Assembly: GCA_963797485.1 (NCBI GenBank)
Contig: CAWCPF010000003.1
Location: 199,957 to 263,956 of the forward strand
Length of the DNA: 64,000 bases
Reading direction: 5' to 3'
Source of the DNA: an uncultured Chloroflexia bacterium
GTDB taxonomy: Bacteria; Chloroflexota; Anaerolineae; Anaerolineales; E44-bin32
Below the pieces are notes generated by a model. It was not told the DNA's origin, made no database searches, and worked only from the letters and a program-made list of their open reading frames with translations. This document shows, piece by piece, positions 5,873-13,600 of the stretch (position 1 is its first letter; the number at the start of each line of letters is the position of its first letter). The position numbers were made by a program, and so were the translations under genes.

Positions 5873-6577
5873 GTGGCATGCTTCGGCGCGCTGGCGCTGG
5901 CTGTGGCGGGCTGCGGGGAGATGGGGACAGCCAGCCCCTCGGCCGGGGCCATCGGGCCACCGCCGCAGGCCATCGAGACCGCCGAGGACCTGGCCGCGTC
6001 TCTGGAGCAGGCGGTCGGCCCGACCACCTGGGTGGGTCCGGCCCCTCCGCGGTTTGGCGTGTCCGGACGCAGGCTGGGGATTGGCCAGGATTGGGTGGAT
6101 GTGTACACTTTCCCGGATTCCGCCGGCCGAGCGACAGCCCAATCCGAAATCGGGGCCGACGGCCGGTCGTTTCAGGGGCAACCGCTGGCGGATGTGGTCC
6201 AGCCGCGCATTTGGGGCATCGGGCGTCTGCTGGTGGTTTATGACGGTGAGGCGGGAGAGACCTTTGTGGTGTTGAGCGGGCTGCTGGGCGACCCAATGGC
6301 GATCCAGACTCCGGTGAGCGATGAACCGTACCCTCCGGCGGTGGCCGCCGCCGTCGGCGCGCTGGCGGAGGACCTGTCCGTTGAGCCGTCCGGCGTCCAG
6401 GTTGTGGACTTCCAGCCTGCCACGTGGCCGGACGGTTGTCTCGGTCTCGGGGGTCCAGATGAGGCCTGCGCCCTTGGACAGGTTTCCGGCTGGCAACTGA
6501 GCTTGCAGGCTGGGGGCCGGTCGTTTGAGGTGCGGACGGACGACCTGGGTCAGGTCGTCCGCTGGACCGAACGTTGA
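5873..6577 (+). CDS. hypothetical secreted lipoprotein
   Basis: N-terminal FGALALAVAGCGE resembles a lipobox (LAVAGC). No recognisable family. The start is uncertain. Confidence 0.5.
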   Translation: MACFGALALAVAGCGEMGTASPSAGAIGPPPQAIETAEDLAASLEQAVGPTTWVGPAPPRFGVSGRRLGIGQDWVDVYTFPDSAGRATAQSEIGADGRSFQGQPLADVVQPRIWGIGRLLVVYDGEAGETFVVLSGLLGDPMAIQTPVSDEPYPPAVAAAVGALAEDLSVEPSGVQVVDFQPATWPDGCLGLGGPDEACALGQVSGWQLSLQAGGRSFEVRTDDLGQVVRWTER

Positions 6578-7836
6578 GCGATCAAGGGTCGTCCGCCCCG
6601 GATGCCTCGATCAAGGATCAGGCGCTTGCGACTCGGAACGTATGGGCGCTCACCCTGACCAGCTTCCTCACCGACGTTTCGTCTGAGATGATCTTCAACC
6701 TGCTGCCGCTGTTCCTGTTTGACGTGCTGCGCGTCGGGACGCCCCTGATCGGCTTGATCGAAGGACTGGCCGAGACCACCGCCAGCGTGATGAAGGTCTT
6801 TTCGGGCTGGTGGTCGGATCTGTTGGGGCGGAGAAAGATCCTGGCGCTCACGGGCTACGGCCTTTCGACGCTGGCCAAGCCGTTCTTGTACCTGGCCAAT
6901 GGATGGGGGTCGGTGCTGGGCGTGCGCTTTGCCGACCGGCTGGGCAAGGGGATTCGGACCGCGCCCCGCGACGCGCTGCTGGCCGGCAGCGTGGGTGAGA
7001 ATCGCCGCGGCTGGGCCTTCGGTTTGCACCGAGCCGGGGACACGGCCGGCGCCGTGGTGGGCCTGGCCGTGGCTCTGCTGGTGGTCCTGGCATCCAGCCG
7101 TCAGGGTGGCGTCCTCGAACGGGCCACCTTTCAAACAATCGTCTTGATCAGCCTTGTCCCGGCCGTGCTGGCCGTGCTGGTCTTGGCCTTAGGCTCGCGC
7201 GAAGTGCCGTTAAGGGCCGCGGGACATGCCAGGCCGCGCTTCGGCCTGACTCAATTCGACCGACCGTTTCGGTCGTTTCTCGGCATCATGCTGATCTTCA
7301 CCCTGGGCAATTCGTCAGATGCCTTCCTGATCCTGCGGGCGCAAAACGCCGGGCTGAGCGTCGCCGGTGTGCTGGGGATGATGCTTGTCTTCAACCTGGT
7401 CTACGCTGGATTGTCGGGACCCGCCGGCAGCTTGTCCGACCGGTGGGGTCGCAAAGGCATGCTGGCAGCGGGTTGGGGGGTGTATGTGCTGGTTTATGCC
7501 GGCTTCGCCGCCGCCAATGCAGCCTGGCAGGTGGTGGCCCTCATGGCCGTCTATGGCGTGTACTACGGCCTCACGGAAGGAGTGGCCAAGGCATTTGTGG
7601 CCGATTTGGTCCGTCCCGAACATCGGGGCACGGCCTATGGCATCTACCATGCCGCCATTGGCTTGATGGCGCTGCCGGCCAGCCTGGTGGCCGGCGTGCT
7701 GTGGCAAGGATTTGGAACCTGGACGGGCTTGGGGCCATCGGCCCCGTTCTGGTTTGGGGCCGCACTGGCACTGATGGCTACCGGTCTGCTGGCCAGCCTG
7801 CGCACGCCGCCTCGGGCAGCGGAGGCCGCCGGGTGA
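6574..7836 (+). CDS. MFS transporter
   Basis: 420 aa, ~12 hydrophobic segments, MFS loop motif-like GWWSDLLGRRKIL and DRWGRKGML. It overlaps the upstream stop by 4 nt. Confidence 0.8.
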   Translation: MSDQGSSAPDASIKDQALATRNVWALTLTSFLTDVSSEMIFNLLPLFLFDVLRVGTPLIGLIEGLAETTASVMKVFSGWWSDLLGRRKILALTGYGLSTLAKPFLYLANGWGSVLGVRFADRLGKGIRTAPRDALLAGSVGENRRGWAFGLHRAGDTAGAVVGLAVALLVVLASSRQGGVLERATFQTIVLISLVPAVLAVLVLALGSREVPLRAAGHARPRFGLTQFDRPFRSFLGIMLIFTLGNSSDAFLILRAQNAGLSVAGVLGMMLVFNLVYAGLSGPAGSLSDRWGRKGMLAAGWGVYVLVYAGFAAANAAWQVVALMAVYGVYYGLTEGVAKAFVADLVRPEHRGTAYGIYHAAIGLMALPASLVAGVLWQGFGTWTGLGPSAPFWFGAALALMATGLLASLRTPPRAAEAAG

Positions 7837-8942
7837 AACGGCTCGTCAGCCAGGTTCGCAGCCCGGTCAGGCGCCAGGGGGCCGACACCTACCTGCTGGT
7901 CAGCTTGTTGAGCTTTGCCGCCTCGGTGAGCCTGACGCGGCTTTTCCTATATCTGACCGGCTACCCCCAAGTCGGCAACTCCGAGCTGCATATCGCCCAT
8001 GTGCTGTGGGGAGGGCTGATCTTGTTTGTGGCTGCCCTGCTGCCGCTCATCCTGGCCAATCGCTGGGTCTACACCACGGGAGCGGTGCTCGCCGGTGTCG
8101 GGGTAGGGTTGTTTATCGACGAAGTGGGCAAGTTCATCACCCAATCCAACGACTACTTCTATCCGGCCGCGGCGCCGATTGTCTACGCCCTATTCCTGCT
8201 GGTCGTGCTTCTATACACCCGGATCCGGCGCCCCGGCCGCCGCTCGCCGCGGGTGGAGTTGTACCGCGCCTTCGATGGTCTTCAGGAGCTGCTTGACCGG
8301 GACCTGGACGCCGATGAACGTGCCGAGCTAGAAGCGCGGTTGCAGTACGTCGTGGACCAGTCCGAATCCGGCGAGCTCTCCCATTTGGCGGAACGCTTGC
8401 TGGAGACGGTCAGCGACCGGGCGCTGAAACTTGCCCCCGACCGGACCACGCTGGTTGAGCGCCTGCAGTCCCACTGGGAGTCCATCGAGGCGCGTTGGTT
8501 TGGCCAACGCGCGCTGAAGATGATCCTGGTGCTGGGTCTGGCGCTCATCGGAGGGCTGGCGCTCTACCACACCTGGCCCCTGATTGAGCCCACCCGGGCC
8601 GCCAGCCGGCTTGAGGAGCTGATCCTGGTGGGCCGGATAGGCTCGAGCACCGGCCTGGCCTGGTACACGGCGCGTCTGGCTATGGAGGGCTGTATTGGTC
8701 TGATTGTCTGGGTGTCGGCCGGGCTGTTCATCGCCGGGAAGGATCGGGCGGCCGTGGGGCTGGCCTATCTGGGAGTGCTTCTGGCGTTGACGACCGTCGA
8801 TCTGCTGGTGTTCTATTTTGAACAGTTCGGGACGACTCTGAAGGCGCTCGGCGAGTTCGCCGTGTTGATCGGCGTGATGCGCTACCGGGCGCGATTCCTG
8901 GCCAGCTCGAGCCACGCGCCGGCTGACACGCCGGACGCATAG
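7833..8942 (+). CDS. hypothetical polytopic membrane protein
   Basis: The 499-aa ORF from 7443 overlaps the MFS gene out of frame. In-frame GTG at 7833 (GTGA overlap with the MFS stop) starts a hydrophobic protein VKRLVSQVRS...LLVSLLSFAASV. Confidence 0.6.
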   Translation: MKRLVSQVRSPVRRQGADTYLLVSLLSFAASVSLTRLFLYLTGYPQVGNSELHIAHVLWGGLILFVAALLPLILANRWVYTTGAVLAGVGVGLFIDEVGKFITQSNDYFYPAAAPIVYALFLLVVLLYTRIRRPGRRSPRVELYRAFDGLQELLDRDLDADERAELEARLQYVVDQSESGELSHLAERLLETVSDRALKLAPDRTTLVERLQSHWESIEARWFGQRALKMILVLGLALIGGLALYHTWPLIEPTRAASRLEELILVGRIGSSTGLAWYTARLAMEGCIGLIVWVSAGLFIAGKDRAAVGLAYLGVLLALTTVDLLVFYFEQFGTTLKALGEFAVLIGVMRYRARFLASSSHAPADTPDA

Positions 8943-8997
8943 GTTGAGCCTAGTACTTTCTTTAAGGTCTACTGGCGGATTTTTAAGGAGTCAGTTG

Positions 8998-9027
8998 TTG
9001 ACTCGTCGTTTTCGATGGTGCTAGTAT
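8998..9027 (+). promoter_or_regulatory. sigma-70-type promoter of the orphan RNA
   Basis: TTGACT (8998-9003), 18-nt spacer, extended -10 TGcTAGTAT (9019-9027). Confidence 0.6.
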
Positions 9028-9033
9028 GTTTCC

Positions 9034-9350
9034 ACTGAGAGGGGCCCCCTGAAGCCCAGAGACGATCTCAGGGAACGGTCGACGAAGACAAACTGAAGTT
9101 GGCGAGCGGTTCATCTCATGCAGAAGAACCGTGAGCTGGTGGAAAGGCCTTCGGGCCGGGGAAGCCAGCAAGCGAGCGGCGAGGGCCTTCGGGCACCGGC
9201 CGATTGGGAGCCAGCGTAGGCGGCTTTAGGTTCCTGGAACCTTAAGCAAGTAATCGACCTGAAACCGGGATCGGATGTAAGTTACTTGGGGTCTCTCTCA
9301 GCTCATTTAAGCTAAGTGGGGCCGCCACATGCTGGGCGGCCCCTTCTGTG
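9034..9350 (+). ncRNA. unclassified structured RNA (~300 nt) with its own promoter and terminator
   Basis: No sense ORF of 60 aa or more. A 14-bp closing helix pairs 9035-9048 with 9288-9301. Nested helices pair 9077-9082 with 9254-9259 and 9135-9139 with 9165-9169. There are UUCG-loop hairpins at 9146-9157 and ~9184-9194. A terminator hairpin pairs 9318-9326 with 9335-9343. No tmRNA, RNase P or SRP hallmark strings were seen. Confidence 0.55.
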
Positions 9351-9397
9351 TGCTTCTCTATCTTCATGCCGGATTGGCCAGAAACGCGTCCGGGTCG

Positions 9398-9530
9398 CCT
9401 CACCCCCTGGCCCCCTCCCCCTGGGTTGGCTACAAGCATGCTTGATCGACCTCATCCCAGGGGGAGGGGTCAGGGGAGGGGGTAGACATGCCACACAATT
9501 CGGGGCTCAATCGGGTAGAAGGGTTCCACC
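9398..9530. repeat. GC-rich palindromic (REP/MITE-like) intergenic repeat, copy A
   Basis: Arm CCTCACCCCCTGGCCCCCTCCCCCTGGG (9398-9425) is nearly complementary to CCCAGGGGGAGGGGTCAGGGGAGGGGG (9456-9482). The core CCCCTGGGTTGGCT...CTCATCCCAG..GGAGGGGT.AGGGG.GGGGGTAGAC recurs at 13441-13600. Confidence 0.7.
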
Positions 9531-9612
9531 AAGGCGGAGACGCCGCCTCGAAAACCGTCGAGATAGTGCCGTCGAATCGGCGGATCGTTGCTCGGCGCGG
9601 GAGCGCCAGGCC

Positions 9613-10184
9613 CTACTGCGGCAGGCGGGCGATGTACGGGCAGCTGGCGGTAGTGCCCTTGGTGTTGAAGCCCGTAGCCCACCAGGAAATCGTCGGGGGC
9701 CTCAAAGCCGACATAGGCCAGAGGAATGCGGATCAGACGTCGGTGGGGCCGGTCCAGCAGCGCGGCCACATGGATGGTAGGCCGGCTGGCGGGGAATCAG
9801 TGAGCCGATCAGATGATGCAGCGTCAAGCCGGTGTCGACAATGTCCTCGACCAGCAAAACCGGCCGACCGCGGAGATCGGCCTCCAGATCCTTGACGATT
9901 TGGACCCGAGCGGGTTCGCCATCCGGCGGCCCGAACCGGCTTAGGGCCATGGTGTCGGTTTCGACCGGGATCGACAGCTCCCGCAGCAGGTCCCCCAGAA
10001 ACAGGATCGCCCCGGGGAGCACGCCGACGATCAGGAGCGGCGCGCCGGCGTAGTCGGCCGAAATGTCCCCCGCCAGCCGGTGAATGGCGGCCTGAATCTG
10101 GTCCCGGTCGAAGACCACGGAACCCGAATCAAAATCCAACGGGCGCCCGTCGGCGCGGGTCGTAAGGTCAGAACTCTGAGGCAC
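9613..10184 (-). pseudogene. hpt: hypoxanthine phosphoribosyltransferase, interrupted by two frameshifts
   Basis: The N-terminal frame carries the PRPP loop VLLVEDIVDTGLTL. The middle frame carries IHVAALLDRPHRR...YVGFEAPDDFLVGYGL. The conserved end YRQLPYIARLPQ-stop is only reached in a third frame. Shifts lie near 9779 and 9638-9640 (GGG run). Confidence 0.85.
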
Positions 10185-10569
10185 CTAGCAAACCGGGGGC
10201 ACGATCCTGAAGTCCATACTTAATGAGCAGGCCGCGCATCTGACGCCGGTTGAGCAGACGGACTTCGACGCCGGGATACAGTTCGGTCAGACGGCGGAAC
10301 TTATGATGCTTGCGGGTTATCGAAGACTGCCGCAGGGTCGTGAGCTCGACATACAAATCGAAGGGCGGCAAGTAGAAATCGGGCGTCACAGCTTCCTTGA
10401 CCGCGCCCTGCGGGTCGTAGGCCAGCGGAAACGTTGTCGGCTCGTAGCACCAGGGGATTCCATAGTAGTCCAACAGGCGGGCGAACTCGGCCTCGATCGG
10501 GTGCGCGAAATCCTTGGGGGGGTTGGGGTTGGGAACGGGTTCCACGGTGGGTGGGGATGATACCCCCAC
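10168..10569 (-). CDS. conserved hypothetical protein (133 aa)
   Basis: Non-repetitive ORF with balanced composition. Its 3' end overlaps the hpt start by 17 nt, suggesting an operon. No family recognised with certainty. Confidence 0.55.
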   Translation of the reverse strand: MGVSSPPTVEPVPNPNPPKDFAHPIEAEFARLLDYYGIPWCYEPTTFPLAYDPQGAVKEAVTPDFYLPPFDLYVELTTLRQSSITRKHHKFRRLTELYPGVEVRLLNRRQMRGLLIKYGLQDRAPGLLGASEF

Positions 10570-13440: not shown

Positions 13441-13600
13441 CCTCACCCCCCGGCTCCTTGGACCACGATCCCCTTCCCCTGGGTTGGCTGCCAGCAGCTT
13501 AGATCCAGCTCATCCCAGACGGAGGGGTAAGGGGTGGGGGTAGACGCGCCACCCGGGTTGGAGCCCGGCCGGGAAGTGGGTTTCAATACGGAGAAGGGGC
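13441..13600. repeat. GC-rich palindromic (REP/MITE-like) intergenic repeat, copy B
   Basis: Shares the core CCCCTGGGTTGGCTGCCAGCAGCTTAGATCCAGCTCATCCCAGACGGAGGGGTAAGGGGTGGGGGTAGAC and flanks (CCTCACCCCC upstream, TCAATACGGAGAAGGGG downstream) with copy A at 9398-9530. Confidence 0.7.

Follow-up and report, generated by a model that had tools for sequence, protein, structure and literature searches.

According to our analysis, a 64,000-nt stretch of DNA from an uncultured Chloroflexia bacterium (GenBank assembly GCA_963797485.1, contig CAWCPF010000003.1, positions 199,957–263,956 of the forward strand; hereafter the window, whose own numbering is used throughout) carries on its plus strand, at 8998–9352, what its sequence marks as a genuine non-coding RNA (ncRNA) gene of an undescribed family. 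The transcription unit lies between a gene for a membrane protein and hpt, and the predicted RNA comprises a conserved core of about 267 nt, which the terminator extends to about 317 nt. We consider it probable that this is a vertically inherited, independently transcribed structured RNA which acts as a stable folded partner. An earlier note, made from the letters of the same stretch, had described an orphan structured RNA of no recognisable class at this site and had offered either a divergent 6S/Ms1-like RNA or an undescribed large structured RNA as its identity; the latter alternative is the one that the evidence supports. The findings which that note had named as arguing against its proposal (a significant Rfam match, a lack of homologs, or homologs without compensatory changes) were each looked for, and none of them was obtained.

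The first line of evidence concerns the borders of the transcription unit. The promoter (8998–9027, plus strand) consists of the −35 hexamer TTGACT (8998–9003), an 18-nt spacer and the extended −10 element TGcTAGTAT (9019–9027, with the hexamer TAGTAT at 9022–9027). In a consensus scan it was the sole sigma-70-like site within 8700–9800, shuffled sequences giving 0.1 sites. The −35 hexamer is identical in all homologs and the extended −10 element reads TGCTAG(G/T)AT, while the spacer (17–18 nt) is variable in sequence; hexamers that stay fixed around a varying spacer represent the phylogenetic footprint of a promoter. The transcript would start at about A9034, 7 nt past the −10 element and one to two bases before the helix that pairs the RNA ends. 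The intrinsic terminator (9318–9352, plus strand) has a 9-bp all-GC stem and an 8-nt loop, followed by TTCTGTGTG; in this hairpin, GGGGCCGCC (9318–9326) pairs with GGCGGCCCC (9335–9343), and TTCTGTGT follows. The terminator stems of the homologs have almost no sequence in common, yet each is a GC-rich hairpin with a T run in the same place. The scan also found promoter and terminator at matching relative positions in L008 and L015 (L-numbers are labels of the fetched contig loci). The relatives therefore retain both a conserved promoter and an intrinsic terminator, as is characteristic of an independently transcribed ncRNA gene, and the RNA's own promoter and terminator, as well as all coordinates that had been given for them and for the other sequence elements, hold on a check of the sequence. 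The linker between core and terminator (9302–9317, plus strand) includes a conserved UUUAA (9306–9310), which is related to the boxes described below.

The region upstream of the promoter is also conserved. An A/T-rich block, CTAGTACTTTCTTTAAGGT (8950–8968, plus strand, approximately −85 to −66 from the predicted start), is nearly invariant among the homologs, with two C/T changes, both in L015, and includes the first of two TTTAAGG boxes (8961–8967). The second box (8982–8988, plus strand) lies 21 bp after the first and 10 bp before the −35 hexamer. TTTAAGG occurs just twice in the 64 kb, both times upstream of this promoter, and both copies are invariant in all homologs. The stretch 8943–9033 has a GC content of 43%, compared with 65% for the window. 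Judging from their sequence and position, the block and the boxes may represent an UP element or an activator/regulator site, and they suggest high or activator-dependent expression of the RNA.

The second line of evidence comes from comparison of related loci. Contigs carrying the closest relatives of the membrane protein (95%, 69%, 63%, and 62% amino-acid identity) share a uniform gene order: an MFS transporter gene, the membrane-protein gene, a gap, hpt on the opposite strand, an open reading frame (ORF) of 125–133 aa and a DUF1684 gene, with dnaK beyond them where the contig reaches far enough. The gap, which corresponds to 8943–9614 of the window (the membrane-protein gene ends with its stop at 8942), measures about 410–420 nt in the relatives and 845 nt in L001, and the relatives' gap aligns with the window from the promoter through the terminator. 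In total, eight distinct full-length RNA sequences, situated at the same syntenic site, and three truncated ones were found, all in one clade, which bears the NCBI title "uncultured Chloroflexia bacterium"; one contig (L032) carries the first ~85 nt of the RNA alone. In nhmmer, seven variants scored 328–342 bits, and L015, the most divergent copy, scored 221 bits. A scan of 185,579 species genomes with an invariant 20-mer returned three true species and one chance match (L021), and a scan of the JGI metagenomes with a degenerate 3′ pattern returned four contigs, all from the same clade. Runs and samples behind the metagenome loci include SRR18214510, SRR11829268, Ga0307440, and Ga0315556, and assembled genomes with the RNA include those to which contigs CAWDZQ010000004.1, CAWAND010000010.1, and CAVSID010000001.1 belong. 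The RNA is present as a single copy per locus. At the loci of more distant relatives of the membrane protein (53–59% identity; L012, L013, L014, L018, and L027–L031), neither nhmmer --max at E ≤ 100 nor inspection of the gaps by eye turned up the RNA, and a different gene stands downstream of the membrane-protein gene there. The one-clade distribution thus reflects synteny and exact-word scans, and more divergent homologs may exist beyond the clade.

Within this clade the RNA surpasses every other segment of the locus in conservation. The DNA identity of its core to the window spans 81–91%, with 90.9%, 89.8%, and 81.4% in L002, L008, and L015, respectively, as against 81% for dnaK (compared for L002 and L008 only), 73–74% for the MFS gene, 68% for the membrane-protein gene and 64–70% for hpt, the neighboring genes overall lying at 64–77%. 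The ranking of RNA identities tracks that of the flanking protein, which indicates vertical descent rather than recent transfer. A coding explanation of this conservation finds no support: every frame on both strands has stops in some homologs, no 3-base periodicity of the variable columns was seen across the homologs, and none of the mechanical ORFs of 45–65 aa that overlap the gap is conserved in the relatives, in agreement with the initial impression that the region holds no credible ORF.

The third line of evidence is the predicted fold. The minimum free energy (MFE) structure of 9030–9350 on the plus strand has an energy of −144.3 kcal/mol, with z = −4.4 against dinucleotide shuffles, and none of 100 shuffles folded as well. 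The reverse strand folds worse (z = −3.0), and the L015 copy reaches z = −3.3. The layout of helices P1–P7 comes from an RNAalifold run on the eight sequences, combined with counts of pairs. In this layout P1 pairs the RNA ends and opens into two 28-nt joining strands, of which the 5′ strand is almost invariant; these lead to P2 and to a junction with P7 and P3, and P3 in turn closes the junction of P4, P5, and P6. Sequence variation gathers in P5–P7 and their linkers.

Across the eight sequences, 97.3% of the pair cells hold standard pairs. Double compensatory changes occur at six pairs, a number reached in none of 500 shuffles and set against 0–1 in slid controls, and approximately 15 further pairs vary on one side alone, mostly via G-U intermediates. 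Many pairs are G-U, some of them in all sequences and some switching between G-U and Watson-Crick forms; since G-U pairs are mismatches on the opposite strand, they fix the plus strand as the one that folds.

The conserved core spans 9034–9301 (plus strand), with its 5′ and 3′ ends paired in P1. The 5′ arm of P1, UGAGAGGGGCCCC (9036–9048), forms 13 pairs with the 3′ arm, GGGGUCUCUCUCA (9288–9300), and all 13 are kept in all eight sequences, two of them varying by G-U-compatible single changes. The end helix had been proposed with 14 pairs (9035–9048 with 9288–9301); its 13 bp are conserved, but the outermost pair, C9035-G9301, is confined to the window and its nearest relative. As a separate observation, the P1 3′ arm of L002, L008, and L015 (for example, L008 7445–7461) may alternatively form a hairpin of its own, GGGG-UCUCUCUCA-CCCC, and with the UUUUAA behind it would look like a small terminator; such a self-fold is possible in most homologs and impossible in the window and L001, where GCUC replaces CCCC.

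The 5′ joining strand (9049–9076, plus strand) contains 24 successive invariant bases, UGAAGCCCAGAGACGAUCUCAGGG (9050–9073), and can fold an invariant 19-nt hairpin, CCCAGAGA-CGA-UCUCAGGG (9055–9073), with a conserved A·A mismatch. This hairpin is chosen by the MFE structure of L015 and is missing from that of the window. The 3′ joining strand, UGAAACCGGGAUCGGAUGUAAGUUACUU (9260–9287, plus strand), has invariant GAAAC, GGG, and GUAAGUUACU segments. Pairing between the two joining strands, which both RNAalifold and the MFE structure drew, was rejected: changes in the 3′ strand are not compensated and break two of the drawn pairs, and the 5′ strand is invariant. A CGAUC/GAUCG pairing was likewise discarded, as it is broken by L002-type sequences. 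UUACUU (9282–9287) could pair with AAGUAA (9248–9253) in a candidate pseudoknot, both stretches being invariant.

P2 is formed by GGUCGA (9077–9082, plus strand) and UCGACC (9254–9259), giving 6 pairs; in L015 the helix reads GGUCAC/GUGGCC, which amounts to two double compensatory changes and one change of U-A to U-G. Its 3′ arm directly follows the invariant AAGUAA, so that the two elements together occupy 9248–9259 (plus strand). On the other side of the helix lies the junction strand CGAAGACAAA (9083–9092, plus strand), whose invariant GAA (9084–9086) stands opposite the invariant AGUA (9249–9252). By its orientation beside P2, the GAA/AGUA pair of segments forms a putative loop-E/sarcin-ricin module, to which the candidate pseudoknot of AAGUAA would be an alternative.

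P3 joins CUG-AA-GUUGGC (9093–9103, plus strand) to GCCAGC-G-UAG (9210–9219, plus strand) in 9 pairs that are 100% paired, two of them with G-U-compatible changes. Hairpin P4 (9107–9131, plus strand) has the form CGGUUC-A-UCU, loop CAUGC, AGA-A-GAACCG; its 9 pairs are likewise 100% paired, and two show single-sided compatible changes. Hairpin P5 (9135–9169, plus strand; 10 pairs) combines the stem GCUGGU/GCCAGC, a purine-rich internal loop (GGAAA/GGGGAA) and the apical hairpin GGCC-UUCG-GGCC, with one double change from U-A to C-G in L015. P6 (9173–9206, plus strand; 10 pairs, UUCG loop at 9188–9191) is a variable peripheral element with one double change from A-U to C-G, and its lower stem is partly disrupted in L015. 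The most variable element is hairpin P7, GCUUUAGGUUC-CUG-GAACCUUAAGC (9223–9247, plus strand; 9–11 pairs), in which three positions have undergone double changes (A-U is replaced by G-C in two sequences, and U-A by C-G in one); in L015 it has another stem sequence, GCUC-UCU-GAGC, with a GA-rich internal loop recognised by eye. The long-range helices drawn by eye in the earlier note, and its 9135–9169 element with GGCC-UUCG-GGCC at 9146–9157, are reproduced by the MFE structure. Among its smaller hairpins, those at 9107–9131, ~9183–9197, and 9223–9247 also appear there, while the one at 9059–9069 is absent from the MFE structure of the window yet present in that of L015. GGA triplets in the loops might have pointed to a sponge for CsrA; this reading was discarded, since L015 does not conserve the loop GGA motifs.

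No known RNA family accounts for this element. Rfam 15 (4,227 families) gave zero matches at gathering score over the whole 64-kb window. With relaxed filters at E ≤ 10, it gave nothing on the RNA in window 8900–9520 and nothing whatever in L015 4100–4475. The only matches of the relaxed scan were chance ones to microRNA models, all of them on an unrelated GC palindrome at 9393–9488. ARAGORN detected neither a tRNA nor a tmRNA in the window, and the models of 6S, Ms1, raiA, OLE, RNase P, and SRP RNAs did not match the RNA in the Rfam scans of the window and L015 copies. Neither Rfam 15 nor ARAGORN thus assigns the RNA to a class, as had been anticipated from the letters alone. Plasmids, phages, and viral contigs yielded no relative, only 41-nt chance matches inside phage baseplate genes. 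The papers searched on the discovery of bacterial structured RNAs gave no description of the RNA. As a side result, the entire 64 kb contain no tRNA gene, riboswitch, or other Rfam family above threshold.

As to function, we give close to an even chance, if slightly short of it, to the proposal that the RNA acts in trans via its folded shape, as the partner of a protein or another macromolecule. Action through shape is favored because the conservation spans junctions, joining strands, and helices without any single short seed, and because UUCG hairpins, purine-rich internal loops, and a loop-E-like module are present. According to this proposal, the RNA would be neither a cis regulator nor a short antisense RNA. 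Its functional core would consist of the invariant or nearly invariant parts (P1, the two joining strands, P2, the loop-E-like GAA/AGUA module, P3, and P4), and P5, P6, and P7, two of them UUCG-capped, would form a variable structural periphery; the upstream block with its two TTTAAGG boxes would provide high or activator-dependent expression. A more far-reaching version, which we hold to be rather doubtful, is that the RNA founds a new class of large structured bacterial RNAs and has its own biochemical role. One candidate role is that of a lineage-specific regulator associated with RNA polymerase or the ribosome, taking the place of 6S or another canonical RNA in these Anaerolineae; another is that of a new ligand-binding or catalytic RNA. 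Under both, the invariant 28-nt joining strands and the loop-E-like module would be the active or binding site.

Several points weigh against our interpretation. Only eight distinct sequences were found, all in one narrow clade, and most double changes stem from a single divergent sequence, L015; for these reasons the support from covariation is real but modest, suggestive without being decisive in statistical terms. The core is for the most part invariant, and invariant pairs are neutral with respect to pairing. Transcription is predicted from the promoter, the terminator, and conservation in the DNA. Part of the RNA could come from upstream read-through followed by processing, since no obvious terminator closes the upstream operon between the stop at 8942 and the RNA. 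Finally, the trans-acting, protein-partner part of the proposal draws on analogy and on the pattern of conservation.

The best-surviving alternative, which we nevertheless regard as unlikely, is that the RNA is a functional analogue of 6S or Ms1 and binds RNA polymerase by mimicking an open promoter. In such a scheme, P1 would correspond to the downstream DNA, the joining strands to the "bubble," and the stacked P2, loop-E module, and P7 to the upstream arm. Like 6S (RF00013) and Ms1, the RNA is a stand-alone, stable-looking product of a strong-looking promoter, and a 13-bp helix joins its ends and gives way to a large sequence-invariant internal loop, with a covarying helix on the far side. 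Its size is near that of Ms1, which measures about 300 nt in Actinobacteria. The contiguity of P7, AAGUAA, and P2 on one strand makes an arm of ~22 layers geometrically possible, and one may speculate that CUGAGA of the P1 5′ arm pairs instead with UCUCAG (9066–9071), recalling the rearrangements of 6S. However, neither of the two copies tested matches a 6S or Ms1 model at E ≤ 10. The architecture differs as well: 6S is an extended, irregular, rod-like hairpin with one central bubble, whereas the distal half of this RNA is branched (five hairpins/helices), the covarying P2 enclosing a multi-branch domain P3–P7 of ~170 nt and not a rod, and the internal loop measures 28 by 28 nt and has a hairpin of its own. 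A housekeeping 6S should be widespread, but the RNA is known from one narrow clade and was not found in more distant relatives by the locus and word scans, a weak argument, as these scans covered that locus and set sequence words.

It is quite improbable that the RNA is a base-pairing small regulatory RNA, in which one of the invariant single-stranded stretches would serve as a seed for mRNA, and UUUAA with the terminator as a chaperone-binding 3′ module. An independent unit with promoter and terminator and a conserved A/U stretch right before the terminator would suit this role; against it, conservation extends over all 267 nt, with helices and junctions included, and not over one seed, and the RNA is far larger and more elaborately folded than typical seed-type small RNAs.

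A cis-acting role is very unlikely. The element would then be the 3′ untranslated or terminator region of the operon of the MFS and membrane-protein genes, or it would serve a downstream gene as leader or riboswitch. The missing separate terminator between the stop at 8942 and the RNA, and the constant linkage to the membrane-protein gene within the clade, fit such a role. Nevertheless, a conserved promoter lies between that gene and the RNA, and the membrane-protein family has more than 5,600 members, with the RNA absent from all five of five more distant members inspected. A leader role is excluded, because the next gene, hpt, is convergent and leaves nothing downstream to regulate.

An origin in a mobile or defence element (omega RNA or reRNA of IscB/TnpB, IS110 bridge RNA, or the ncRNA of a retron or DRT), suggested by similar size, an ornate fold, and paired ends like the a1/a2 of retrons, is largely refuted already and hardly tenable, given a single-copy RNA in a syntenic housekeeping neighborhood, no relatives on plasmids, phages, or viral contigs, and no nuclease, recombinase, or reverse-transcriptase gene beside it in any locus (the neighbors being MFS, the membrane protein, hpt, the 133-aa ORF, DUF1684, and dnaK). 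Equally remote is the reading that no functional RNA is encoded, the region being a GC-rich spacer that folds by chance or a short protein-coding gene missed by annotation: GC-rich sequence folds well on its own and 45–65-aa mechanical ORFs overlap, but conservation above that of dnaK, the changes at paired positions, and the comparison of frames, none of which is open across the homologs, refute it, and the z-score of −4.4 speaks against it too.

Other large RNAs offer looser parallels to the structured RNA proposed here. The raiA motif RNA (RF03072), which is widespread in Bacillota and Actinomycetota, is similarly longer than 200 nt, highly conserved, independently transcribed, and rich in invariant nucleotides, with its biochemical function likewise unknown. 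It comprises P1–P6, two pseudoknots, and ~51 conserved positions, has few if any copies in Anaerolineae, and often has an E-loop (PMC10861870), to which the GAA/AGUA arrangement may be a counterpart. Our RNA differs from it in its helix layout and in the lack of a raiA gene nearby, and does not match its model at E ≤ 10. OLE RNA is also a large structured ncRNA that adjoins a membrane-protein gene and occurs in anaerobes, but its model does not match here; OLE RNA is ~600 nt long and occurs in Bacillota. The adjacency to a membrane-protein gene in our case is probably incidental, because the family is so large and the distant members inspected lack the RNA. RNase P RNA, tmRNA, and SRP RNA are comparable in size range and degree of sequence conservation, but their signature motifs are missing here.

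To our knowledge, there are few large, highly conserved bacterial RNAs of unknown function, and each of the solved ones (6S, OLE, raiA, and GOLLD/ROOL) brought unexpected biology to light. The Anaerolineae are an under-studied and mostly uncultured class, for which almost no RNA biology is known. For annotation, the analysis means that a ~400-nt "intergenic" stretch in these genomes is a gene, and the eight sequences constitute a seed alignment for a covariance-model search. Since promoter, start, paired ends, and terminator delimit the RNA cleanly, it can be synthesised and probed directly. The narrow known distribution and the absence of a functional clue from the neighbors limit its importance; we therefore view it as a clean, experimentally tractable orphan RNA of moderate interest.

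The neighboring genes deserve a brief description. Upstream, 7836–8942 (plus strand) encodes a 368-aa multi-pass membrane protein without a Pfam domain, with its true start near 7836. It belongs to a large uncharacterised family whose more than 5,600 relatives come mostly from Anaerolineae metagenomes, the named ones being metagenome-assembled genomes of Anaerolineae. In most loci inspected, the start of this gene overlaps or closely trails the stop of the MFS transporter gene.

Downstream, hpt (9615–10184, minus strand) has two frameshifts in the window, near 9770 and near 9640, compared with the intact hpt of L001 (95%-related) and L002. Because of these frameshifts, its 3′ end is really at about 9615, and the real stop codon is probably 9615–9617. 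They represent either an assembly/indel error or a gene that has recently become a pseudogene. Indel errors seem to be present in the window, given that the two frameshifts are seen against a 95%-identical relative; the RNA core has zero indels against the same relative, L001. Overlapping the start of hpt, an ORF of 133 aa without a Pfam match (10168–10569, minus strand) stands beside hpt in all syntenic loci (125–133 aa) and is a conserved unknown partner of it.

The GC palindrome mentioned above belongs to a GC-rich palindromic repeat of ~90 nt, similar to repetitive extragenic palindromic (REP) sequences or miniature inverted-repeat transposable elements, with the pattern …CCTCACCCCC…CCCTGGGTTGGCT…CTCATCCCAG…GGGGTAGAC. 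It occurs at 9394–9487 and 13442–13545 of the window and at ~4160–4260 of L001; one copy lies 3′ of the RNA terminator and one 3′ of dnaK, and these two are ~80% identical to each other. The repeat explains both the longer spacer in the window and L001 and the spurious microRNA-model matches at 9393–9488. In the distant relative L012 (Anaerolineaceae, CP070708.1), which has no RNA homolog, the corresponding gap (6160–6560) holds various GC-rich perfect hairpins of REP-like appearance, followed by a masked run of N.

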